DNA from: Oscillospiraceae bacterium
GTDB lineage: Bacteria > Bacillota > Clostridia > Oscillospirales > Acutalibacteraceae
Reading direction: 5' to 3'
Assembly (NCBI GenBank): GCA_031269595.1
Contig: JAISYX010000030.1
Coordinates: 1 to 23,053, forward strand
DNA length: 23,053 nt
Within the stretch, counting starts at the first letter, position 1; each line of letters begins with the position of its first letter. Below the pieces are notes generated by a model. It saw only the letters and a list, made by a program, of their open reading frames with translations. It was not told the DNA's origin and made no database searches. The position numbers and the translations under genes are program-made. Of this stretch, positions 422-22,965 are shown in pieces.

Positions 422-450
422 TTGACACCGCATTCTGTTTATAGTATAAT
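422..450 (+). promoter_or_regulatory. Sigma-A type promoter for the ylxM-ffh operon: TTGACA, 17 bp spacer, TATAAT
   Basis: Perfect -35 at 422-427 and perfect -10 at 445-450. Confidence 0.7.
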
Positions 451-566: not shown

Positions 567-929
567 ATGGCTGTTAACCCACAAATAACGCTGCTCTTGG
601 ATTTTTACGGCGATATGCTAACCGAAAAGCAGCGCAATATGATAGACTATTACTATAACAACGACCTCTCTCTGGGTGAGATTGCTCAAAATGAGGGCAT
701 TACCCGTCAGGGCGTGCGGGATTCTATCAAAAGAGCAGAGGCTCAAATGGTAGAAATGGAAGAAAGACTTGGCCTTGCAGCTAGATTTTCAGAGCTTCAG
801 GAGGGTCTTGAGGAGATAAAGCTGCGTGTTGCCGTTATCGAAGAGATTAACAGCCGCAGCGGTAATAACTATGATATAAGCAAGCACATTGATGCTATCA
901 AGCTTCTGGCCGAAAGGCTTATTAAATAG
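567..929 (+). CDS. ylxM: YlxM/UPF0122 family putative DNA-binding protein, the usual partner upstream of ffh
   Basis: Motif LLDFYGDMLTEKQRNMIDYYYNNDLSLGEIAQNEGITRQGV is typical of the family. ATG 567 gives about 120 aa. The alternative TTG at 513 sits only 3 nt after AAAGGAG. Confidence 0.75.
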   Translation: MAVNPQITLLLDFYGDMLTEKQRNMIDYYYNNDLSLGEIAQNEGITRQGVRDSIKRAEAQMVEMEERLGLAARFSELQEGLEEIKLRVAVIEEINSRSGNNYDISKHIDAIKLLAERLIK

Positions 930-975
930 AAAGGCAGAGCGCAGCAGCTAATGCTCTGACACATGGTGTTTTTTG
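929..975 (+). promoter_or_regulatory. Leader element copy C1 (short form): GAAAGGCAGAGCGCAGCAGC-taat-GCTCTGACACATGGTG-ttttttg, ending at the ffh ATG
   Basis: Member of an 8-copy family with box1 GAAAGGaAGAGaCGCAGgcgCAGCAG and box2 GTGTGCgGGCTCTCTgACACATGGTG. Confidence 0.6.
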
Positions 976-2590: not shown

Positions 2591-2653
2591 GAAAGGTAAG
2601 TGTCAGCAGAGGTGCATAGCTGTGCCTGTGCTTTATGACACATGGTAACAAGC
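2591..2653 (+). promoter_or_regulatory. Leader element copy C2: GAAAGGTAAGTGTCAGCAGAGG ... TGTGCCTGTGCTTTATGACACATGGTAACA
   Basis: Box1 and box2 consensus. The element ATG at 2642 lies 12 nt before the likely true GTG start at 2654. Confidence 0.55.
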
Positions 2654-2910: not shown

Positions 2911-2947
2911 GCCGTGAAGCAAATTAAAGCTTCACGGCACTTTTAAT
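2911..2947 (+). terminator. Rho-independent terminator GCCGTGAAGC-aaattaaa-GCTTCACGGC then ACTTTTAATT
   Basis: 10-bp perfect stem plus T-rich tail, directly 3' of the KH gene. It ends the operon before the rimM/trmD/rplS genes that normally follow. Confidence 0.7.
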
Positions 2948-2950
2948 TAA

Positions 2951-3290
2951 ATTGAAAATTGAAAGTTGAAAGTTGAAAGTTAAGGCTAATTTGCTGCGCA
3001 AATTTAAAAGAATATAATTCCCCTCAACGGAGGGGTGCCCCAAAGGGGCAGGGTGGTTTATACGTCAGCAAACACTTTAAAGTAACGCTTAATTAAGAGC
3101 GAGCACAAAGCTAAAAAGCAAGCACCACGCTCCAAAATTCACAAATCAAAAGAGTAGTGCGCCCGCAAAACCACCCTCTCTTCCTCCTACGGGGCGGAAG
3201 AATGCCCCTCCGAAGAGGGGAATTTAGTCGGCAGCCCGAACCCTTAAATCAAAATTTGCGCAGCAAATCCACCTTCATTATGCATTATCA
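2951..3290 (+). repeat. MITE-like repeat, family 1, copy 1, about 340 bp. Layout: TTGAAAG heptamer repeats, AATTTGCTGCGCAAATT hairpin, a 45-55 bp GC-rich TIR (AATTCCCCTCaacgGAGGGGtgCCCC...GGTGGTTT), an A-rich 170-bp core, the inverted TIR, then AAATTTGCGCAGCAAAT hairpin
   Basis: About 85-90% identical to 14083-14445 (same orientation) and 16852-17203 (inverted). No credible ORF. Sits between convergent genes. Confidence 0.75.
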
Positions 3291-3291
3291 A

Positions 3292-3978
3292 TTATACATT
3301 AATCAAAACTGGCGCAAATCCTGTGTAATCGCAGGAGATTAGCTTAAACTTTGTGCCCTCGTTTTCGCCGTTAAAGGCTTTTTTGTGTGCTATCCCGTGC
3401 AGATGTCCGTAATATACCCTTTTAATGCTGTATTCCTGCAGCACTGCAAGTATCTCCTCGCAGGTGTATTCGCCCATAATTGGGGGGTAATGCAGGAACA
3501 CAACAGGCTCAAGGCCTGTTTTTGCAGCCTCCTCTATAGAGGCTCGCAGCCTGCCCGCCTCCCGCAGTATAATGCGCTTGTCGTCCTCTCCTGCGTCAAG
3601 ACTCCAGCCCCGAGTTCCGCATAGACAAAGCCCCTCAACAGCCTTGCAGGAGTTGTGGATAATCTCCAGCGTGTTAAAGCCCTGCTCTGCAAAGAAGCTT
3701 TCCATTTTGCGGCGGGTGCTCCACCAGTAATCGTGATTCCCCTTTATAAGCAGCTTTGTTCCGGGCAAGGAGTTGAGGAAGACAAAGTCTGTGCGGGTGT
3801 TTTCCAGCCGCATAGCCCAAGAAATATCCCCTGCAATTACCACCGTATCCTCAGGCTTTACAAGGGCATTCCAGTTTTTTTCGATTTTTTCTGTGTAGCT
3901 CTCCCACCCGCGAAAGATGTCCATGGGCTTGTCTGTGCCCAGTGAGAGGTGTAAATCTGCTATTGCAAAAATTGCCAT
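3292..3978 (-). CDS. Metallophosphoesterase (calcineurin-like phosphoesterase, YfcE-like)
   Basis: DLHLS, GDISWA and GNHDYW metal-binding motifs. The last about 4 codons lie in the MITE flank. Confidence 0.75.
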   Translation of the reverse strand: MAIFAIADLHLSLGTDKPMDIFRGWESYTEKIEKNWNALVKPEDTVVIAGDISWAMRLENTRTDFVFLNSLPGTKLLIKGNHDYWWSTRRKMESFFAEQGFNTLEIIHNSCKAVEGLCLCGTRGWSLDAGEDDKRIILREAGRLRASIEEAAKTGLEPVVFLHYPPIMGEYTCEEILAVLQEYSIKRVYYGHLHGIAHKKAFNGENEGTKFKLISCDYTGFAPVLINV

Positions 3979-4057
3979 TAAAACACCATGTGTTAGAGAG
4001 CCCGCACACTAATAAGTCATCAAAAGTTCACCCTTTGTGCCTGCGTCTCTACCCTTC
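3979..4057 (-). promoter_or_regulatory. Leader element copy C3 (long form), ending at the metallophosphoesterase ATG
   Basis: Minus-strand sense reads GAAGGGTAGAGACGCAGGCACA...GTGTGCGGGCTCTCTAACACATGGTGTTTTAATG. Confidence 0.6.
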
Positions 4058-4074: not shown

Positions 4075-4113
4075 ACACCATGTGTTAGAGAGCACACTGC
4101 GCTCTGCCTTTCA
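4075..4113 (-). promoter_or_regulatory. Leader element copy C3' (short form), in tandem upstream of C3, followed by a 7-codon mini-ORF MVSVLKK
   Basis: Sense reads GAAAGGCAGAGCGCAGTGTGCTCTCTAACACATGGTGTCAGTTTTAAAAAAATAA. Confidence 0.5.
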
Positions 4114-4471: not shown

Positions 4472-5053
4472 CTAATTACTTGCCTTAGCCTGCTCTATTT
4501 TAATTAATAAGGCTTGCAGCGAGCCTATTATGGACGAAAATCTCTCGCCATTTTCTATATCAAATGAGAGAAACCTCTCTGTCAATTCCTCTGTAAGGCT
4601 CAAGCCCTCGGTTAAGGGCTGCATAAAGTCTGTGTTCTGGGGGCGTGTCATGGGAAGCAGATCTTTAATTTTGCTTAAATCCGTTTCCAGCTCTCTTTGC
4701 AGCACGTCAAAGGATTTGCGCAGCTCGTTAAACTCCTGAGAGACAGCCGTTAAAACCGTGGAATCTATGTAGGAGATGTCGCTCCCGTCCACATTTTGCA
4801 CATACTTCATCATGGTTTGCCTAAGAGCCTCCAGCAATGCGGTGGAAATTTCGGCAAGCTCACGACACACAGAACGGTGTGTTGAGGAGATATATTGCTT
4901 AAGGCTCTCGGCTCCTGCACCGGACATGTCCTGGGCAGCAATGTCCGCCCAAATGACATCCATGCGCTTAAAGCCTTCGCTTAGCTTGGCGGATTTTGGC
5001 GCAAAGCTCTCTCTGGCCTGCACCAGCTCGGAATAATCTAAAAGCTTACTCAT
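4472..5053 (-). CDS. LXG-domain-like protein, 193 aa, an N-terminal type VII effector delivery domain with no C-terminal toxin domain
   Basis: N-terminus MSKLLDYSEL, a SGAGAESLKQY block, DISYIDSTVL and KDLLPM all resemble LXG domains. GGGGAGG RBS. Preceded by two small helical genes as in the Bacillus ywqH-ywqI-ywqJ locus. Confidence 0.5.
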   Translation of the reverse strand: MSKLLDYSELVQARESFAPKSAKLSEGFKRMDVIWADIAAQDMSGAGAESLKQYISSTHRSVCRELAEISTALLEALRQTMMKYVQNVDGSDISYIDSTVLTAVSQEFNELRKSFDVLQRELETDLSKIKDLLPMTRPQNTDFMQPLTEGLSLTEELTERFLSFDIENGERFSSIIGSLQALLIKIEQAKASN

Positions 5054-5313
5054 AGACTAGCCTCCCCGCCCTGCTGTGTAAGGTCAAGAGTATCCACAGC
5101 CTTTTCTATTTTTGCAGTGTCAAGCATTACTAATTCAGAATATGCATTTACGCATTTTTGAAGCAGAGCCAGAGCCTCTGAAAAGCCTGCAAAGGTGCTA
5201 AGGGTGCTTTTGGAGACAGACAGAGTATCGTGGCTTGTCTCTCCAAGCTCTACCGCCTCGTTTTTTAGAAGAGCAAGCTGGCCTTTAATGGCCTCGCTGT
5301 TAAAGCCTACCAT
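5050..5313 (-). CDS. Small helical WXG100-like accessory protein, 87 aa (YwqI / DUF5344-like, an LXG partner)
   Basis: Size, position between the 134-aa gene and the LXG gene, and GGGGGG RBS. Start and stop overlaps with both neighbours. Confidence 0.45.
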   Translation of the reverse strand: MVGFNSEAIKGQLALLKNEAVELGETSHDTLSVSKSTLSTFAGFSEALALLQKCVNAYSELVMLDTAKIEKAVDTLDLTQQGGEASL

Positions 5314-5711
5314 GCAGCATACCCCCCTGTTTCTTTTTCAAGCATATCCAGCGAATTTCTTAATGAAGTAATTTGCTTGTGATTGCTGTAACGCTGATTT
5401 TCTAACCGTGTTATTTCTCTTTCAATAGAATCCTGTATTAAATCAAGCTTGCGAAGGTAATCGGTGCAGCCCCAAACGGTGTCGTCTACTAATCTGTAAT
5501 GAATTTTTTTGGCCTGCATACCCTTCCACTCTTTAAACAGGGATTCTTTAGCCTTTAAACGGCTAAGGCTGGTTTTAACGTTAAACTTTAAAAAGCCCAA
5601 ATCCTCGCCGGCCTCCTTAAGCCTTTGTATCCCTTGAGCTATACGTTCCTGCCGCCTTAAAAGGTCGTTTAAATCTCCGTTTGTAAGAGAAATTCGTTCC
5701 CTTATGTTCAT
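5307..5711 (-). CDS. Small helical accessory protein, 134 aa (YwqH / DUF5082-like, an LXG partner)
   Basis: AAAAGGGGGA then 9 nt then ATG at 5711. The ORF-track TTG at 5750 lies upstream of the RBS. Confidence 0.45.
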   Translation of the reverse strand: MNIRERISLTNGDLNDLLRRQERIAQGIQRLKEAGEDLGFLKFNVKTSLSRLKAKESLFKEWKGMQAKKIHYRLVDDTVWGCTDYLRKLDLIQDSIEREITRLENQRYSNHKQITSLRNSLDMLEKETGGYAAW

Positions 5712-5986
5712 ATGTAAAAATCCCCCTTTTAACATGAACAATTTGTGCAATTTTAAGCAACTTATAGCATATTAACCCATATTGCCACAAAATTTGCGAT
5801 AACTGTATTGATTATAACATATGCAACCTGAAATGTAAATAGTTTTATAATCAAAATGTTTTGGAAAAATTTGATAGTTGGATTTTTGTAAGTAGTGGTT
5901 TGTGGAGTGCTCTGTAAATCTTAAAATTTCAAATTCGCCCACAACGCTACAGTGGTACACCAAATGAATTTGAAGCCACAAAAGCT

Positions 5987-6160
5987 GCGTCATTGCGAGC
6001 ACGCAACAAAGCCGGAATAACAGTAAAGTGCGGTGTGCGAAGCAATCCAGTGGAACAAGGCCAGACGTCCCATAGTAGCACAGGGGCTTAAGTCCCACTG
6101 GATTGCTTCGCACTTGTAACCGCATGGTAAACTCAAGCTCAGCGGTGCTCGCAATGACGC
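5987..6160. repeat. Nested-palindrome repeat, family 2, copy A, about 174 bp. Outer stem GCGTCATTGCGAGCAC/GTGCTCGCAATGACGC encloses an inner stem GTGCGAAGCAATCCAGTGG/CCACTGGATTGCTTCGCAC
   Basis: Second copy at 12952-13125 in the opposite orientation. The overlapping ORF 5772..6206 is judged spurious. Confidence 0.7.
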
Positions 6161-6376
6161 ACGTCAGTGGGGCGATAGAAAAGTAACATTCCTCACGCTC
6201 TCTCACATTCCGCCCGGTCTACATGTGGACGTAAAAAGTTTTAGTTGTTACAAGGTAGTAGCAGCAAATTTTTAATCGAAATTGCGAAAATTGCTAAAAA
6301 ACTGCGAAATCAGGCAAAAAACTGCGCAACAGCGAGCTAATCTCAGCTAATCGCCGAATATGTCAACAAATCAGGG

Positions 6377-7034: not shown

Positions 7035-7108
7035 CGAAAGGTGGAGACGCAGCATACACTTTTTAATAAATTGTTGGTGTGCGGGCTCTCTGACACATGG
7101 TGTTTGTT
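7035..7108 (+). promoter_or_regulatory. Leader element copy C4 (long form)
   Basis: CGAAAGGTGGAGACGCAGCATACAC-ttttaataaatt-GTTGGTGTGCGGGCTCTCTGACACATGGTGTTTGTTATG. Confidence 0.6.
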
Positions 7109-7783
7109 ATGAGCGGAATTACCGCATGGTGGGAGGGGCTTAGCTCCTTACAACAGGTATTTGTAGCAATGGCAACTCCTGCTACAGTTATACTGTTTTT
7201 ACAAACTATACTGCTACTATTTGGCATGGGACACGGCAACTCAGCCGAGTTTGAGAGTGACACCTCAGGCTTGGGCGACAGTGACGCTCCCGACGGCCAC
7301 GCACTGGAATTTCATGACCACGACGCCTCAGGGCACGAGGATTTTTCCGGCTTGCGCATATTTACTCTTAGGGGCATAATCGCCCTGCTGGCCATTGGCG
7401 GCTGGACAGGCGCAGTTGTGGCAGGGGGCACAGGGAGTGCTTCTTTAAGCATCATCTCCGCTTTAATTGCGGGCATTGCTGCGCTTATACTGGTGGCTCT
7501 GTTCTTTAAGGGGATACTCTCGCTGCAAGAAAACGGCAACACACAAATAAAAACCGCCGTAGGCAAAACCGCCGAGGTTTACCTGCGAGTTCCTGCAAAC
7601 CGCAGCGGTACAGGCAAGGTTAATGTACTGTTAGGCTCTCAATTGGTGGAGGCCGAGGCTCTAACTGATTCTGATAAGGATATTTTCCCACATGAGCAGG
7701 TAAGTATAACGGCGGTAGAGGAGAGAATCCTTATAGTAAAACGCAAATCCATTTTAACAACCAACAAGGAGGAAAACTCGTGA
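7109..7783 (+). CDS. NfeD-like (YuaF-like) membrane protein with a C-terminal OB-fold
   Basis: TM segments plus a C-terminal KTAEVYLRVPANRSGTGKVNVLLGSQLVEAEA beta-barrel, and position before a flotillin gene. Alternative start ATG 7097 gives MVFVM, but that prefix comes from the leader element. Confidence 0.65.
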   Translation: MSGITAWWEGLSSLQQVFVAMATPATVILFLQTILLLFGMGHGNSAEFESDTSGLGDSDAPDGHALEFHDHDASGHEDFSGLRIFTLRGIIALLAIGGWTGAVVAGGTGSASLSIISALIAGIAALILVALFFKGILSLQENGNTQIKTAVGKTAEVYLRVPANRSGTGKVNVLLGSQLVEAEALTDSDKDIFPHEQVSITAVEERILIVKRKSILTTNKEENS

Positions 7784-8487: not shown

Positions 8488-8533
8488 AGTTAGAAAATTG
8501 CAAATTTAAAATGACAAATGGCAAATGAAGGTT

Positions 8534-8550
8534 AATTTGCTTCGCAAATT
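8534..8550 (+). repeat. Solo AATTTGC-ttc-GCAAATT hairpin preceded by caaat-type tandem repeats
   Basis: Same palindrome that caps the family-1 MITE copies. Confidence 0.5.
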
Positions 8551-8580
8551 TAAACAATTAAAAATCAGGAGGAAAATGTT

Positions 8581-10033: not shown

Positions 10034-10960
10034 CTAATTGCTCTTAGCAAGGGGCGCATTCAGCTCGTCTCTCATGCGAATGGCCTCACGTCTGGCCGCT
10101 GCTGCGTACTCCCTCTCGTCACAGCCCTCTTTTTTATAGGCACACATTATGGCACGGGAGGAATTTACTATTGCACCCAAGCCATTTGCATCAAAGGCAG
10201 GGGCTACATCGGCAGCACCGCCGCCCTGTGCGCCGTACCCGGGCACTAGGAAGAAGGTGTGCGGTAGCTTTGCCCGCAGTTCCTTAAGCTGTGCGGGATA
10301 GGTTGCACCCACTACAGCACCAACGCCGCTGTAGCCATGCTTGCCTATGGAATCCTCTCCCCACTGTTTGCAGTGCTCGCCCATTATTTCATATACAGAT
10401 TTACCCTCTATCAGCTTATCCTGCAACTCCCCTGAGGAGGGGTTTGAGGTTTTAACCAGCACAAATATGCCTTTATCCTTGCCCTTGCATATATCAAGCA
10501 GGGGCTTTATTCCGTCACTGCCCAAATATCCGTTAACCGTGAGGGCATCCCCGCCGAAGGGCTCAAAGCTCAGGTCTTCAACGGCTACCTCGCCCAAGTG
10601 GGCTATGGCGTAGGCCTCCATGGTTGTGCCTATATCGTTGCGCTTGCCGTCTGTTATAACAAACATGCCCTTTTGCCTTGCATATGCAATGGTTTGCTGC
10701 AACACACGCACACCCTGCCAGCCGTACATCTCATAATAGGCCGCCTGAGGCTTGACTGCCGGAACAATATCGCAAAGAGCATCAATTAACCCAATGTTAA
10801 ATTGCAGCAGAGCCTCCGCTGCGCCCTCTAGGCTTTTGCCGTGCTTGGCATAGGCCGCCTCCTTAATAAAGGAGGGAATGAAGTCCAGCTTTGGGTCTAG
10901 CCCCGCAACTGTAGGGTTTTTTGTTTGAATGATTTTTTCTATAAGTCTATCTAATGACAT
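10034..10960 (-). CDS. pyrF: Orotidine 5'-phosphate decarboxylase, type 2 (long form)
   Basis: KNPTVAGLDP, VITDGKRNDIG and about 310 aa length. The start is either ATG 10969 (MVVM, inside the leader element) or ATG 10960. Confidence 0.85.
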   Translation of the reverse strand: MSLDRLIEKIIQTKNPTVAGLDPKLDFIPSFIKEAAYAKHGKSLEGAAEALLQFNIGLIDALCDIVPAVKPQAAYYEMYGWQGVRVLQQTIAYARQKGMFVITDGKRNDIGTTMEAYAIAHLGEVAVEDLSFEPFGGDALTVNGYLGSDGIKPLLDICKGKDKGIFVLVKTSNPSSGELQDKLIEGKSVYEIMGEHCKQWGEDSIGKHGYSGVGAVVGATYPAQLKELRAKLPHTFFLVPGYGAQGGGAADVAPAFDANGLGAIVNSSRAIMCAYKKEGCDEREYAAAARREAIRMRDELNAPLAKSN

Positions 10961-10969
10961 AACCACCAT

Positions 10970-11020
10970 GTGTAGAGCTTAAGAACAACATCAGCTGCTG
11001 CACCTGCGCTCTCTCCCTCG
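10970..11020 (-). promoter_or_regulatory. Leader element copy C5
   Basis: Sense reads CGAGGGAGAGAGCGCAGGTGCAGCAGCTGATGTTGTTCTTAAGCTCTACACATGGTGGTTATG. Confidence 0.5.
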
Positions 11021-12124: not shown

Positions 12125-12261
12125 TAGTTTAAGTTATCCTTTCGTATTTTGTAGTAAGACTAAAGTCCTTTTGCGTTGCGAACTAATAATAAGTATATCA
12201 TGGTAATCCCCTTTAAACAAGCGGGGTATTCAAAATTTACAAAATAATAAAAGTTATGCTA

Positions 12262-12855: not shown

Positions 12856-12951
12856 GAATTTCAGCTCCTTTGTTTGTGATTATTGATTGCTCTGTCTGTG
12901 GGGATATGCGAGAGCGTTAGGAATGTTGTGTTTCTATCGCCTCGCTGCCGT

Positions 12952-13125
12952 GCGTCATTGCGAGCACCGCTACGCTTGAGTGTATCATAGGGTTACAAGT
13001 GCGAAGCAATCCAGTGGGACTAAGCCCTTGCGGCTTCGATTGAACGTCTAGCCTTGCTCCACTGGATTGCTTCGCACACCAAACATCACTGTTGGTTTAG
13101 CTTGGTTGCGTGCTCGCAATGACGC
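12952..13125. repeat. Nested-palindrome repeat, family 2, copy B (inverted relative to copy A)
   Basis: Same outer and inner stems as 5987-6160. The spacers are reverse complements of copy A. About 80-85% identity. Confidence 0.7.
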
Positions 13126-13206
13126 AGCTTTTATGGCTTCAAAATCATTTAGTGCACCGCTGTAGCTTTGCGGGCGAATGCAATTCGCTCCTACAGTTTT
13201 TAGATG

Positions 13207-14061
13207 TTATTCCAACGTCAAAACAATAATTTCTGCTCTGTTCCACAGGCGCATTATCTTTGCGGGGCCAAGGCCGCTGCTAATAAGCATCTTGCAGCCT
13301 TTATTTTCAAACATACCTGCGTCATACCGTGGAAAAAACAGGAAGTGGGGCGAAAATACGCCCCCAAAAAATGGGATGCGCACTATGCCGCCGTGCACGT
13401 GTCCGCTTAGAGTAAGGGCAGCACCCCACTGGACATAGGCCTCAAATTGGTGAGGGTCGTGAGCTAGCAGCAGTGCGGGATTTTGCGGCTTTTCATTAAG
13501 AGCAAGGAGTATATCCTCGCCTGTTATGTCAAGCAGCCGCCTGTGAAATATATTTGAGGCAGACTTTTCATCCAAGTCTTGAATGTAGCCGTAAATCGGC
13601 AATTCTGCGCCGTTTTTCTTAAATTTTTCGCTGCTATTCAGCAGGCAAACAACGCCTCTCTTTTGCAGCTCACGCTTAAAAGCTTCGCTTATGCTGCGGC
13701 CGTCACCATTGCGCAGGTCGTGGTTGCCCGGGCTGTAGTACACGGGAAATCGGCCTTCAAGGCTATCCAGCAGCTCCATAAAGGAGCGGTAGCTGCGCCT
13801 GTTGGAGTCGTGCATATCCCCGGGACAGGCGATAAAATCGGGATTTTCGGCAGCGATTTTTTCAGCCAGACGCCTGTTGTGCTTGCCAAAGCTCTTTTCG
13901 TGCAAATCACTAAGTGTGACTATTTTAAGCCCCTTAAGCTCCTTAGGCAAGCCCTTAAGGGCGGCGGTGCAGCGGGTTATACGCAAGCAGTTGGCAGAGC
14001 GCAGAGCCTCAAAAACAAGATAAACCGCAAGGAGGATAATTGCTGTTATAATGTATTTCAA
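13207..14061 (-). CDS. Membrane-anchored metallophosphoesterase (YkuE-like)
   Basis: N-terminal TM segment plus LSDLH, GDMHD, GNHD and GHVHGG motifs. The ORF-track TTG 14067 is 2 nt from GGGGGG. The next in-frame TTG at 14061 has 8 nt spacing. Confidence 0.7.
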   Translation of the reverse strand: MKYIITAIILLAVYLVFEALRSANCLRITRCTAALKGLPKELKGLKIVTLSDLHEKSFGKHNRRLAEKIAAENPDFIACPGDMHDSNRRSYRSFMELLDSLEGRFPVYYSPGNHDLRNGDGRSISEAFKRELQKRGVVCLLNSSEKFKKNGAELPIYGYIQDLDEKSASNIFHRRLLDITGEDILLALNEKPQNPALLLAHDPHQFEAYVQWGAALTLSGHVHGGIVRIPFFGGVFSPHFLFFPRYDAGMFENKGCKMLISSGLGPAKIMRLWNRAEIIVLTLE

Positions 14062-14082
14062 ACGCAAAGCCCCCCTTTTTTA

Positions 14083-14445
14083 AATTGAAAATTGAAAGTT
14101 GAAAATTGAAAGTTATGGTGAATTTGCTGCGGCAAATTTAAATTAAAAAAGAATATAATTCCCCTCAACGGAGGGGTGCCCCGAAGGGGCGGGGTGGTTT
14201 ATGCATCCGCAAACGCCCTAAATTAACACCTATTTAAGAGCGAGCACAAAACCAAAAAGCTAATAGGCAAGAACCACGCATCAAAATTCAAAAAAGCAAG
14301 AGCATCCCGCCCGCAGACACAACCCTCGTCTTTCGCCCCGCAGGTGAAAGCCTTCCCCTCCGAAGAGGGGAATTTTAGGTGGCTGGGGCTTGAACCCTTT
14401 TAATCAAAATTTGCGTTAGCAAATCCGCAACTCTTCACTTTTCAC
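14083..14445 (+). repeat. MITE-like repeat, family 1, copy 2
   Basis: Heptamer repeats plus AATTTGCTGCGGCAAATT hairpin at 14121-14138, TIRs, and an AAATTTGCGTTAGCAAAT hairpin at 14407-14424. Confidence 0.75.
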
Positions 14446-15243
14446 TCAATCAAAGTATCCTTCTCTATATAGGTCTATATAATTTTCGCAATATTCATCA
14501 CGGCCAATCAGAGCCTCTGTGGCCAAGACAAGGCACATAAGCTCCTTGTCAAGCGGGTTTAGGATTGCGCTGTCCATCCCTGCTATAATGGCCGCTACAA
14601 GAAAGGCACGGTTGATGTACTTTCGAGCCGGCAGACCATAGGAGATGTTGGAAAGTCCGCAGGTTATGTGAACCTTGGGATATTCAGTGCGTATGGTGCG
14701 TATAACCTCCAGTGAAGAAAGCCCCGCGTCCTCCTCAACCCCTAAGGGGCTGAGCATTGGGTCTATGTAAATATCCTCAAGGGCAAGGCCTTTGCCGCTA
14801 AGCTTTTCAATTAGAGTGCGGGAGAGGCCTATCCTCTCCTCGGCGGTTTGGGGTATCCCGTTGTCGTCCATACACAGGGCAAGTATGCCTGCATTGTACT
14901 TCTTTGCAAGGGCAGACATTTTTTCAAAGCGTTCTGCCTCCAGTGTGGTGGAATTGATAAGGGGCTTAGGGCCTTGATACACCTTTAAGGCCTGAGCCAT
15001 AGCCTCATAGCCAGGGCTGTCTATGCACAGGGGCAGAGTGGTGTTTGCCGCAATAAGCTTGACTAATTGGCTTAGCTTTTCGGCCTCTTCCTCCCCGAAC
15101 ATACCTGCATTTACATCCAAAAAGGCCGCTCCGGCCTTTGCTTGTGCCTGTGCAAGCTCTATAAGCTTAGCCTCATTCCAAGAGGCCATGGCCTCACGCA
15201 CAGAGGGTATAGAGCTGTTTAGCTTTTCACCTATTATTATCAT
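14446..15243 (-). CDS. Pterin-binding domain methyltransferase (MtrH/AcsE-like methyl-THF:corrinoid methyltransferase family)
   Basis: DHPS-like TIM-barrel motifs (IIGEKLNSS, LDVNAG, ITCGLSNISYGLP). Probable real start ATG 15243, 13 nt after the leader-element GTG at 15276. Confidence 0.6.
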   Translation of the reverse strand: MIIIGEKLNSSIPSVREAMASWNEAKLIELAQAQAKAGAAFLDVNAGMFGEEEAEKLSQLVKLIAANTTLPLCIDSPGYEAMAQALKVYQGPKPLINSTTLEAERFEKMSALAKKYNAGILALCMDDNGIPQTAEERIGLSRTLIEKLSGKGLALEDIYIDPMLSPLGVEEDAGLSSLEVIRTIRTEYPKVHITCGLSNISYGLPARKYINRAFLVAAIIAGMDSAILNPLDKELMCLVLATEALIGRDEYCENYIDLYREGYFD

Positions 15244-15324
15244 TTGTTGACACCACGTGTCAGAGAGCCCGCACACAAAACTCTGTAAAAGATGTTTTGC
15301 TGGGCTTCCTGCGTCCTTTCTTGG
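15244..15324 (-). promoter_or_regulatory. Leader element copy C6 (long form)
   Basis: Sense reads CAAGAAAGGACGCAGGAAGCCCAGC...TTTTGTGTGCGGGCTCTCTGACACGTGGTGTCAACAAATG. Confidence 0.6.
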
Positions 15325-16830: not shown

Positions 16831-16851
16831 AAAACCAGTTCCCCTCTTTGT

Positions 16852-17203
16852 TGATTCGTAATGCGTAATTCGTAATTAAAGGTGGATTTGCTGCGCAAAT
16901 TTTAATTCAATACTATCGATTAACACTGCCCTAATTCCCCTCTTCGGAGGGGAATTCTTCCGCCTACAGGGAGGAAGAGAGGGTGGTGCCTGCGGGAGTA
17001 CTACTCTCTTGATTTGTGAATTTTGGAGCGTGGTGCTTGCCTTTTAGCTTTTGGTTTTGTGCTCGCTCTTAATTATGTGTTAGTTTAAAGTGTTTGAGGA
17101 TGCATAAACCACCCCGCCCCTGCGGGGCACCCCTCCGTTGAGGGGAATGATATTATAAATCAAAATTTGCAAAGCAAATCCACCTTTAATTACGCATTAC
17201 GAA
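16852..17203 (-). repeat. MITE-like repeat, family 1, copy 3 (inverted), abutting the stop codon of the SDR gene
   Basis: Reverse complement is about 90% identical to copy 1. Outer TIR AAAGGTGGATTTGCTGCGCAAATTT matches AAATTTGCAAAGCAAATCCACCTTT, and the cgtaatg-type flanks are also inverted. Confidence 0.75.
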
Positions 17204-17920
17204 TCATGCATTAAACAACCCATCTACCCCCAAAACCTGCCCTGTTATAAAGCCGGCCTCAGTTGAGGCCAGGAACAGTGCGGCGTTTGCCACCTCATCG
17301 GGAGTGCCAATGCGCCCTAATGCGCTTTGAGCGGCCAGCTCGTTTAAATCCTCGGGGCTAAAGCCATGCAGCATTTGGGTGTTAATTACCCCGGGACTTA
17401 TGCAGTTTACCCTTATGCCCGAGGGTCCAAGCTCCTTTGCCAAGGCCTTAGTCAGGCCTATAACCGCCGCCTTTGCGGCCGAATACGCCGCCTCGCAGGA
17501 GGCTCCCGCCTCCCCCCATATAGAGGACATGGTTATAACAGAGCCGCTTTTGCGGCTTATCATTTGGGGCAGGATAAAATGGCTTGCATTGTATATGCTC
17601 TTAACATTAACGGCAAACAGCCTATCCCATTCCTTAGGGCTAAGCTCTGTAAACAGGCCGTAGGAGGCCGCTCCCGCATTGCAAACCAGCACATCAACAT
17701 GGCCAAGCTGAGAGAGAATCTCCTTGCAGCTGGCCTCAGTTTGAGCGTAATCGGCGCAGTCACATTTAAAAGCGGCTGCGCCTGTATTTTTAGAAAGAGA
17801 GCGTGCCTCAGCCCCACTGTTAAGATAGGTAAAAGCACAATTATATCCATTTTGCGTGAATTTTATAACGATTTCACGACCTATCCCACGTGAACCGCCA
17901 ACAATTAATGCTGTTTTCAT
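17204..17920 (-). CDS. Short-chain dehydrogenase/reductase (FabG-like 3-oxoacyl-ACP reductase family)
   Basis: TALIVGGSRGIGREI Rossmann motif, NAG, and a YSAAK catalytic motif. ATG 17920 is preferred over the ORF-track GTG 17935. Confidence 0.8.
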   Translation of the reverse strand: MKTALIVGGSRGIGREIVIKFTQNGYNCAFTYLNSGAEARSLSKNTGAAAFKCDCADYAQTEASCKEILSQLGHVDVLVCNAGAASYGLFTELSPKEWDRLFAVNVKSIYNASHFILPQMISRKSGSVITMSSIWGEAGASCEAAYSAAKAAVIGLTKALAKELGPSGIRVNCISPGVINTQMLHGFSPEDLNELAAQSALGRIGTPDEVANAALFLASTEAGFITGQVLGVDGLFNA

Positions 17921-21639: not shown

Positions 21640-21660
21640 AGTTAAACCTCCCTTTTAAGT

Positions 21661-21715
21661 TGAAAATTGAAAGTTGAAAGTTGAAAATTAAGGCGAATTT
21701 GCTGCGGCAAATTTT
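21661..21715. repeat. Partial family-1 left flank only: TTGAAAG heptamer repeats plus AATTTGCTGCGGCAAATT hairpin, acting as a terminator-like hairpin 3' of rnfD
   Basis: Matches the left ends of the MITE copies but no TIR or core follows. Confidence 0.55.
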
Positions 21716-21787
21716 GATTAAAGGGTTTAAACTCTTCCTCCCTCCAAGAGGGAGCCAGGTAATTTAGGAATTCTTGCATCTTACCTC

Positions 21788-22753
21788 TTACCTCTTGCCT
21801 CTAGCCGCTAGCTGCATCCCCAGTCTATCCAGCGAATAGGATACGGCGTTTACCATTAATATTGCAAAGCAGGCCCCCTGCTCGTATATTCCAAAATACC
21901 GCAAAAGCATACATAGCAGGCCTCCCAGTGCGCCGTACATACCCCTTGCCACTGAGGACTTAGGGGCGGTGGAGGGCTCAGCTGCCATAAACACTCCCGC
22001 AAACACAAGCGAGCCTGAGAGCAGCTCAAAGGTGAGTGATTCCAGCCTGTTGCCCGGGATTCTGGGGAACAGCAGAGCAAAAACTGCGGCCGTTCCAATA
22101 AAAAACACAGGAATTTGCCACGGGACAGTCTTCCTTAGCATAAGATATATAGCACAGGCTGCAATTACCAGCACTGCACTTGTCCCCATAGGCCCGGGGA
22201 AGTTGCCCAAGGCCATCTCTGAAGGGAATATATCAGGCCTTGTGTGCCTGTGCAGCAGCAGTGCAGGGGATTCTACCCCCGCCAGATTAGGGTTTGCAAA
22301 AACAGGCAGAGGCTCAAGGAGCTTGGTATCTCTGTATTTAAATAATTCGCCTGTAAAAAATACGGTTGCAAAGGCTACGCCGCCTGCGGCGGGGTTAAAT
22401 GGGGTGTTACCCATGCCGCCTAAGGGCATCTTTACTACCAGAATTGCAAAAGCCGAGGCGGCCACAGGCAGCCACAGCGGAGCAGAAACAGGCATTAGCA
22501 TAGCAACAACAAGCCCAGTTACTACTGCTGAAAGGTCGGCTACTGTTATGTCCTTTCTTGCGAAAAGGCAGAAGAGAGCCTCAGAGACAACAGCCGAAAG
22601 CACAGCTGCTCCCGTTATGCTCAGCACCCTTAAGCTGCTGTAAATAAACGGTACTATAAGCAGCATAAGCAGCGGGATTATGGCATCCATCATAACAGAG
22701 CGTGAGGATTCTTTTTTTCTTACATGGGGAGCAAGCGCAAAATTTAGCGGCAT
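21788..22753 (-). CDS. rnfD: RnfD/NqrB family membrane subunit
   Basis: GGMGNTPFNPA signature. Alternative start ATG 22765 gives MVFVM, but that prefix comes from the leader element. No rnfC, rnfG or rnfB adjacent. Confidence 0.7.
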   Translation of the reverse strand: MPLNFALAPHVRKKESSRSVMMDAIIPLLMLLIVPFIYSSLRVLSITGAAVLSAVVSEALFCLFARKDITVADLSAVVTGLVVAMLMPVSAPLWLPVAASAFAILVVKMPLGGMGNTPFNPAAGGVAFATVFFTGELFKYRDTKLLEPLPVFANPNLAGVESPALLLHRHTRPDIFPSEMALGNFPGPMGTSAVLVIAACAIYLMLRKTVPWQIPVFFIGTAAVFALLFPRIPGNRLESLTFELLSGSLVFAGVFMAAEPSTAPKSSVARGMYGALGGLLCMLLRYFGIYEQGACFAILMVNAVSYSLDRLGMQLAARGKR

Positions 22754-22765
22754 AACAAACACCAT

Positions 22766-22830
22766 GCGTTGAGACCTTGCACACCAACAATATGTAAAAT
22801 TGTCTGCTGCGCCTGCGTCTCTTCCTTTCG
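22766..22830 (-). promoter_or_regulatory. Leader element copy C7 (long form)
   Basis: Sense reads CGAAAGGAAGAGACGCAGGCGCAGCAGACAATTTTACATATTGTTGGTGTGCAAGGTCTCAACGCATGGTGTTTGTTATG, nearly identical to C4. Confidence 0.6.
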
Positions 22831-22849: not shown

Positions 22850-22965
22850 TAAACTCTGTAAGGTCTAAAGCGTTACGTTTCGTACGGGATGATGTCCACA
22901 TCATCCCGTGAACACCTGCAAATTTCGAGAAAATGGGACGATGTGGACATCGTCCCATATGCACT
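22850..22965. repeat. REP-like hairpin cluster (family 3), inverted copy of 225-345. Contains GGGATGATgtccacATCATCCC and GGGACGATgtggacATCGTCCC
   Basis: Reverse complement of 225-305 matches with only a few substitutions. On the minus strand the second hairpin is followed by ATTTTCTCG. Confidence 0.7.

Follow-up and report, generated by a model that had tools for sequence, protein, structure and literature searches.

A conserved sequence at 7035-7108 of a contig from an Oscillospiraceae MAG (the whole stretch of 23,053 nucleotides is the window analysed here) runs up to the start codon of a membrane-protein ORF, and it recurs directly upstream of other, unrelated genes. What is this sequence, how did it come to occupy so many gene starts, and what does it do to the ribosome-binding sites (RBSs) on which it sits? 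The initial annotation, made from the letters alone, described a leader with two separate parts, box1 and box2, and proposed three roles: a cis-regulatory leader RNA, an operator for a global regulator, or a small mobile element bringing a translation-initiation region with it. Our analysis favours the last of these. With a probability that we put at roughly 60%, the copies are lineage-specific, MITE/REP-like, non-autonomous repeats built on an imperfect palindrome, which colonised and replaced RBSs and supply substitute initiation signals.

Copies of the repeat share one position and one orientation

All eight copies of the initial annotation were found on their strands and at, or within a few bases of, the coordinates first given, and a ninth was present in an unrelated metagenome contig (L083, metagenome Ga0123353). 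Measured from GAAAGG to GGTG, the copies are 37-74 nt long. The parts of the reported copy and the positions of the others in the window are as follows.

7036-7102 (+): reported copy, long form, 67 nt
7036-7041 (+): SD-like GAAAGG of the reported copy
7043-7059 (+): 5′ arm of the reported copy, GGAGACGCAGCATACAC
7060-7076 (+): A/T-rich loop of the reported copy
7077-7091 (+): 3′ arm of the reported copy, GTGTGCGGGCTCTCT
7092-7102 (+): conserved tail of the reported copy, GACACATGGTG, with an internal ATG at 7097-7099
7109-7111 (+): probable start codon of the membrane-protein ORF (no Pfam match), 6 nt past GGTG and in frame with the repeat's ATG at 7097
929-968 (+): copy filling the ylxM-ffh gap, short form, 40 nt
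2591-2647 (+): copy in the rpsP-khpA gap, the most divergent (nhmmer E=1e-7)
3984-4057 (-): proximal copy at the metallophosphoesterase gene, long form
4076-4112 (-): distal tandem copy at the metallophosphoesterase gene, short form, 18 nt upstream of the proximal copy, no start codon adjoining
10964-11019 (-): copy filling the gap between a LytR-family gene and pyrF, beginning 4 nt past the upstream stop
15251-15320 (-): copy in the gap between a DUF6056 gene and a pterin-binding methyltransferase gene, long form; gene ATG at 15243
22760-22829 (-): copy at rnfD, long form; rnfD ATG at 22753

Read through, 7035-7108 is GAAAGG-TGGAGACGCAGCATACAC-(A/T-rich)-GTGTGCGGGCTCTCT-GACACATGGTG, followed by TTTGTT-ATG. 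The genes around it are, in order, a DUF1836/MerR-like gene, the ORF without a Pfam match (the earlier identification of this ORF as NfeD found no backing in Pfam), Bax1-I and SPFH. The first G of the 929 copy is the final base of the ylxM TAG stop, and the ffh ATG at 976 follows 7 nt past GGTG. In the 2591 copy the helix runs from GTGTCAGCAG...TGACAC and khpA starts with a GTG at 2654, while the pyrF ATG at 10960 lies 3 nt past GGTG. The ATG within the 3984 copy opens the mini-ORF ATG GTG TTT TAA, and at 3978 the stop of this mini-ORF shares bases with the ATG of the gene (TAATG); the ORF upstream of this tandem pair is unannotated and has no Pfam match, and the gap holding the pair contains a weak promoter-like site. 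The internal codon of the 15251 copy is GTG rather than ATG. The 22760 copy shares with the 7036 copy the 5′ extension AATACGAAAGG and the 3′ sequence GGTGTTTGTTATG, and its 3′ arm now reads GGTCTC, a perfect match for pairing with GAGAC. It does lie upstream of rnfD, as first assigned, with neither rnfC nor any other gene before it on the contig.

An nhmmer --max search of the window with a profile built from the copies recovered precisely these eight and none besides. The box2 core CTCTNACACATGGTG (up to 3 mismatches) gave 8 matches against 1.3 expected from shuffles, and the box1 pattern 6 against 0.7. Exact box1 12-mers at 13993 and 19686 are antisense within coding regions with no box2 near them, and were set aside as chance or low-complexity matches. 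A 13-nt sequence at 12138-12150 (-), AAAATACGAAAGG, reproduces exactly the 5′ end of the 7036 copy and forms the RBS region of the LytR-family gene, with neither hairpin nor tail; it could represent a remnant of the repeat, its 5′ end alone, or a sequence favoured as a target.

Every copy is in the sense orientation relative to its downstream gene, and the placement directly upstream of seven unrelated genes was borne out throughout. GGTG ends 3-7 nt 5′ of the start codon in seven of the eight contig copies, the remaining one being the upstream tandem; the distance of 12-14 nt earlier reported for the end of box2 was too long, and the feature found 9-13 nt upstream of the start is the internal ATG. 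Given 4,045 nt of intergenic DNA, the chance of seven loci falling in such a slot in this orientation is, by a rough estimate, ~1e-12. Five contig copies occupy stop-to-start gaps of co-directional genes, where they begin -1 to 23 nt past the upstream stop. The repeat is carried by 7 of the 26 genes on the contig, at a density of 8 copies per 23 kb, and its hosts (ffh, khpA, pyrF, rnfD, and genes for a phosphoesterase, a methyltransferase and membrane proteins) have no functional theme.

Genes recognised by Pfam on the contig comprise ylxM-ffh-rpsP-khpA, the metallophosphoesterase gene, an LXG/YwqH cluster, the LytR-family gene followed by pyrF, the DUF6056 gene followed by the pterin-binding methyltransferase gene, and rnfD with two Rnf-Nqr subunits. 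Upstream of ylxM, at 422-450 (+), lies a perfect sigma-70 consensus promoter (TTGACA-17-TATAAT). The segment at 4472-5750 (-) encodes an LXG-domain protein, small ORFs and a YwqH-like protein, and looks like a type VII secretion toxin/immunity cluster. When ORFs are called mechanically, starts fall inside the repeat at 7097, 10969, 15276 and 22765 (MVFVM..., MVVM..., VCGLSDTWC...), and the annotated N-termini of repeat-bearing genes in the MAG are probably several residues too long.

The two boxes are the arms of one hairpin

Box1 and box2 are not the two separate parts first described: they are the complementary arms of a single imperfect hairpin, and the "spacer" between them is its variable loop. 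The main hairpin, AGAG(A)C...G(G)CTCT, is present in every copy and is extended in the long forms by CGCA/TGCG and GCACA/TGTGC. The internal loop ranges from 0 to ~35 nt with no conserved pocket, and by comparison of the copies the short forms, at ffh and distally at the phosphoesterase gene, resemble long forms that have lost the loop.

RNAalifold on a MAFFT alignment of the nine copies returned no consensus structure, because short and long forms misalign, and the helix was therefore counted by hand on the five long copies. In this hand-specified 13-pair helix 83% of cells were paired, against 25-56% when the 3′ partner was slid. The initial annotation had proposed covariation between the boxes as a check; in these five copies the arms pair yet show no two-sided compensatory changes, as expected for copies of a palindromic repeat related by descent. 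Hairpin stability relative to shuffles was unremarkable to modest (z from +0.1 to -2.65). The hairpin potential is thus real, and covariation gives no sign of selection for RNA structure.

Outside the hairpin lie GAAAGG on the 5′ side and an 11-nt tail, (G/A)ACAC-ATG-GTG, on the 3′ side; in partition-function folds both are predicted to be mostly unpaired and the core paired. The tail is the best-conserved block of the repeat, exceeding the stems, with TGGT invariant in 9/9 copies. The start codon that had been noted inside the element is likewise kept in 9/9 copies, as ATG replaced by GTG in one. No promoter-like site was found inside any copy, the A/T-rich loop included, and a promoter within that loop was accordingly rejected. 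An intrinsic terminator was also rejected, the U-run lying ~12 nt from the main hairpin and the mini-hairpin having only 4-5 bp.

The repeat displaces the Shine-Dalgarno sequence

The last 25 nt before each start codon were hybridised to the Firmicute anti-SD tail. Near-start SD energies in the 7 repeat-bearing genes ranged from -2.9 to -8.4 kcal/mol (median -5.4), compared with a median of -11.3 kcal/mol in the 16 repeat-free genes (Mann-Whitney p=0.0004). Over the 100 nt upstream, no site matched the anti-SD more strongly than box1 in 7 of the 8 repeat-bearing leaders, and in the KH leader box1 came a close second. Its energies were -8.8 to -12.9 kcal/mol, at a position 45-85 nt upstream of the start. 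Sequence of native SD strength has therefore been displaced, and just GGUG is left near the start. That GGTG takes the place of the SD, as was initially supposed, is plausible, but the signal is weak: it has the low energies given above, makes a poor SD for a Firmicute, and in two copies, those of pyrF and L083, leaves a spacing of just 2-3 nt to the start. The varying reading-frame relation described at the outset was also seen. Four copies have their own ATG in the reading frame of the gene, and in the others a mini-ORF overlaps the true start; four of eight is no different from a one-in-three chance.

Split initiation signals are known from single genes. Phage T4 genes 38 and 25 have a split RBS with hairpin-containing SD-to-AUG spacers, and the STAB-SD of B. 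thuringiensis cryIIIA places GAAAGG(AGG) far upstream as an mRNA-stabilising 30S binding site. The contig repeat has the far-upstream SD-like GAAAGG in common with these, and its GAAAGG might likewise act across a distance shortened by the hairpin, or bind 30S subunits and stabilise the mRNA, but the T4 and cryIIIA sequences are single-gene devices and are not dispersed. The repeat could itself be a split RBS bridged by structure, with box1 GAAAGG serving as the SD and the hairpin looping out 40-75 nt toward the AUG of the repeat or of the gene; were the repeat's AUG used, the product would be a short N-terminal extension or a coupled mini-ORF. The native-strength anti-SD complementarity of an unpaired box1 fits this proposal, as do the in-frame AUGs and, elsewhere, the mini-ORFs overlapping gene starts, for example through TAATG at the phosphoesterase. 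Folding the segment from box1 to the start leaves only 4-15 nt outside helices, with the repeat's AUG 0-4 unpaired nt past the hairpin. However, 27% of dinucleotide shuffles are equally compact, and the idea that the fold brings box1 unusually near the start codon was dropped since it fails to discriminate the copies from shuffles. The in-frame count is at chance level, and the second mini-hairpin (4-5 bp, 3-nt loop) is marginal. We consider a bridged RBS of this kind rather unlikely.

Orthologous sites are empty in related genomes

The Ffh protein of the contig had one match on record at 100% identity, in the 23,053-bp MAG contig itself. The closest relatives found were four Logan contigs (L086-L089) with Ffh 83-84% identical and the order ylxM-ffh-rpsP-khpA kept. 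Their ylxM-ffh and rpsP-khpA junctions contain no repeat and do contain a canonical SD. The ylxM-ffh spacer of the relatives is 23-28 nt with GAAAGGA or AAAGGGGTG, for example TAA-ATTTTTTTGAAAGGATTGATTTT-ATG, and their rpsP-khpA spacer is 17 nt, TGACGGAGGTTTCTATA-ATG. The corresponding gaps in our contig measure 46 nt and 74 nt and are nearly all repeat; the native GGAGG is absent at its khpA. Filled and empty sites are thus seen between related genomes at both junctions. In 12 further genomes the ffh junction is empty, with a canonical SD 5-9 nt 5′ of ffh.

The comparison covered ~1.4 Mb of related DNA with Ffh 63-84% identical overall. The ffh regions of related Oscillospirales genomes (80 loci, 1.34 Mb, Ffh 63-77% identical) contained no copy, and neither did 25 kb from the closest relatives. 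A metagenome scan with a 19-mer returned five loci (L081-L085), and the sole true copy among them was L083, where rsmI and a gene for a small membrane protein flank the repeat, which is again in sense and has its GGTG 2 nt from ATG; the match in L081 resembles chance and was discarded. Viral contigs searched with the box2 pattern gave no match, and a plasmid search gave only insignificant 21-26-nt matches. Rfam had no match for the contig at the gathering threshold, and none at E<=1 for two copies.

It is the empty orthologous sites with a canonical SD, together with the restriction to one lineage, the loop of 0-35 nt, the unrelated host genes and the missing native SD, that lead us to favour a mobile element among the three roles proposed. 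Mobility itself is suggested by the empty sites, and the relatives that show them share only 83-84% Ffh identity with the contig.

Gene order downstream of khpA also differs. In the relatives khpA is followed by rimM and trmD (L086:7577-8886), and in our contig (2887-3300) by a terminator hairpin (2911-2938), a MITE-like element and a gene on the opposite strand; a conserved operon has therefore been broken at a repeat.

Possible origin, and other repeats of the contig

MITE-type terminal inverted repeats are present in the form of the imperfect arms, with the SD-like head and the 11-nt tail outside them. No consistent target-site duplication was found, just a common GG (GGTG at the 7036 copy and GGTAA at that of KH), and neither a transposase nor a RAYT is encoded on the 23-kb contig.

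Two of the other loci returned by the 19-mer scan, L082 and L084, contain a near-perfect palindrome with 32-nt arms, ATAAACAAAGGTGACACCATGTGTCAGAGAGC-NN-GCTCTCTGRCRCATGGTGTCAYCTTTGTTTAT (L084 and L085 have one and the same sequence). At L082:4363-4428 the palindrome separates convergent genes, and at L084:10411-10800 it forms three tandem 129-nt units between hydF and pgi. It is nested in a larger inverted-repeat element (GACGTGCAC...GTGCACGTC). The 3′ arm of the palindrome corresponds to box2 plus tail plus TTGTTAT, with 5 nt (CACCT) that are missing from the contig copies, and its 5′ arm begins ATAAACAAAGGTG, resembling AATACGAAAGGTG of the contig repeat. Some of the lost 5′ arm survives in the KH and L083 copies as (G)TGTCAG, paired there with CTGACAC. 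These features suggest that the contig family may be an asymmetric deletion derivative in which the SD-like head and the AUG tail lost their pairing partners. We give homology between the contig repeat and the palindrome only about even odds, because the 19-mer was selected for and a database as large as the one scanned should contain chance matches to such a pattern.

At least three other repeat families are present on the contig, and repeat proliferation is therefore a trait of this genome. REP/REPIN-like units, each with a GTAG head and a ~22-nt G+C-rich palindrome (e.g. GTAGGGGACGATGTCCACATCGTCCC), lie at 120-197, 231-309 and 22882-22959, as inverted pairs ~50 nt apart and at both contig ends; they suggest a RAYT-type system elsewhere in the genome. 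A MITE-like repeat of ~350 nt occurs at 2945-3300, 14078-14430 and 16851-17214 (reverse) with 82% mean column identity, and as fragments at 8491-8560 and 21653-21731. Its terminal inverted repeats contain AAGGTGGATTTGCTGCGCAAATTT, and TTGAAAG heptamer runs and CCCCTC..GAGGGG hairpins are found in it; several of its ends adjoin the SDs of neighbouring genes. A 279-nt repeat is found in inverted orientation at 5933-6211 and 12901-13179 (~83-90% identical, no Rfam match). It contains nested palindromes (GCGTCATTGCGAGCAC...GTGCTCGCAATGACGC), and one copy overlaps an unannotated 144-aa ORF.

Comparison with known repeat families

Neisseria REP2 (the CREN regulon) and Borrelia IR-A/IR-B, which bear a promoter, an RBS and an ATG, are, like the contig repeat, dispersed immediately upstream of ORFs in a fixed orientation. 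REP2 and IR-A are 120-150 bp long with a promoter, two stem-loops and ~25 copies per genome (PMC3184786), whereas the contig repeat is 37-74 nt long with one hairpin, has no sequence similarity to them, and mostly sits in co-directional stop-to-start gaps at a far higher local density. Of the features of REP2, the RBS-like box, the ATG and the upstream position are seen in the contig repeat, and the promoter-like site was not found. MIRUs, at 40-100 bp, are intercistronic within operons and gene-oriented, with ends reaching into the flanking stop and start codons; tandem units occur, and sites filled in one species are empty in another (PMC3184786). The contig repeat is likewise intercistronic and co-oriented, one copy overlaps the ylxM stop, and mini-ORFs overlap starts in four. 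MIRUs, however, are G+C-rich direct-repeat units with a small through-running ORF thought to couple translation, in contrast to a hairpin with an SD-like head, a varying frame and no conserved through-reading ORF.

REP/BIME, ERIC, BOX/RUP/SPRITE and Correia elements are also short, imperfectly palindromic, high-copy and lineage-restricted, and they are co-transcribed and able to alter mRNA stability or translation. The modular A-B-C build of BOX, with its variable middle (PMC3049150), parallels the short and long forms of the contig repeat. Small palindromic families are mainly located 3′ of genes or in the gaps of convergent genes, in either orientation (Table 1, PMC3049150), and pneumococcal BOX, RUP and SPRITE are enriched between convergent genes (PMC3049150). 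Unlike REP/BIME, ERIC, BOX and Correia elements, the contig repeat is found only on start codons and in sense, and it replaces the SD. As to REP/REPIN features, it has no GTAG head, its copies are single or in direct tandem, and they are strictly sense. The contig repeat is set apart by its small size, single hairpin, lack of a promoter, and very high local density combined with SD replacement.

Regulatory alternatives

Conservation of the single-stranded tail could instead reflect a binding site for a trans-factor. The copies might then constitute a domesticated post-transcriptional regulon, with the tail (GACACAUGGUGU) and/or the hairpin bound by one RNA-binding protein or sRNA that gates translation. 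That the tail is the best-conserved block, with its TGGT and start codon retained in every copy, speaks for this, and so does its overlap with the ribosome landing zone, 2-7 nt from the start. There is a precedent in Neisseria REP2, which carries an RBS and ATG upstream of 14 co-regulated genes (PMC3184786). However, the genes carrying the repeat are functionally unrelated, covariation is absent and no candidate factor came to light. The repeat is also absent in close relatives, so that any regulon must be very young. We judge a regulon unlikely.

A more speculative proposal, which we hold to be similarly improbable, is that the repeat might be a portable, self-propagating RBS. GAAAGG at its 5′ end and AUG/GGUG at its 3′ end would each imitate one half of an RBS; the repeat might home to, or survive only in, SD-to-start spacers, and might have rewired the initiation of perhaps a quarter of genes, possibly under one trans-factor that reads the tail.

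The operator proposed in the initial annotation would act through the ACAC-N3-GTGT and GTGT-N12-ACAC dyads of box2. Short dyads do exist in box2 and the tail, and reach GACAC-NTG-GTGTC in two copies, but at least six copies (five on the contig plus L083) occupy co-directional stop-to-start gaps with no predicted promoter and none expected. The two gaps that can be compared in relatives, at 17-28 nt, are too small for a promoter, no copy contains a promoter-like site, and a palindromic operator would not require a strict sense orientation. Binding by a global transcription factor is thus very unlikely.

A ligand-sensing riboswitch or conserved structured leader is more improbable still: the hairpin does adjoin the RBS in a 5′-UTR-like position, but there is no Rfam match even at E<=1 (two copies), no conserved pocket in a loop that varies from 0 to ~35 nt, no repeat in the orthologous leaders of relatives, no compensatory covariation and no relation among the host genes.

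A model for the repeat at gene starts

We return to the mobile, MITE/REP-like repeat as the preferred reading. A copy would have split or replaced the native RBS at a stop-to-start position, and would have brought its own substitutes: the single-stranded SD-like GAAAGG at the 5′ end, the central hairpin of variable length, and the 3′ tail ACAC-AUG-GUG(U), which places GGUG 2-7 nt ahead of the start codon of the gene. Copies that fill short co-directional stop-to-start gaps would be expected in the mRNA. Initiation could then proceed through the weak near-start GGUG, aided by box1 as an upstream anchoring or standby site for the 30S subunit, and the hairpin may modulate the rate of initiation. 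Copies would survive only at sites and in orientations that keep the downstream gene translated, and we infer that the strict position and orientation of the family arise because only such translation-preserving copies persist.

Small bacterial repeats are usually tolerated downstream of genes. The family described here sits on the RBSs of housekeeping genes (ffh, khpA, pyrF, rnfD) and moves their SD 45-85 nt away from the start, which indicates that repeats can spread across translation-initiation regions and the genes not be killed. If the whole genome is as densely populated as this contig, with 8 copies per 23 kb and 7 of 26 genes affected, a large share of the proteome would be translated from signals supplied by a repeat. 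The organism would then lend itself naturally to the study of structured or split RBSs in Firmicutes, of repeat-driven rewiring of expression, and of the mis-annotation of gene starts.
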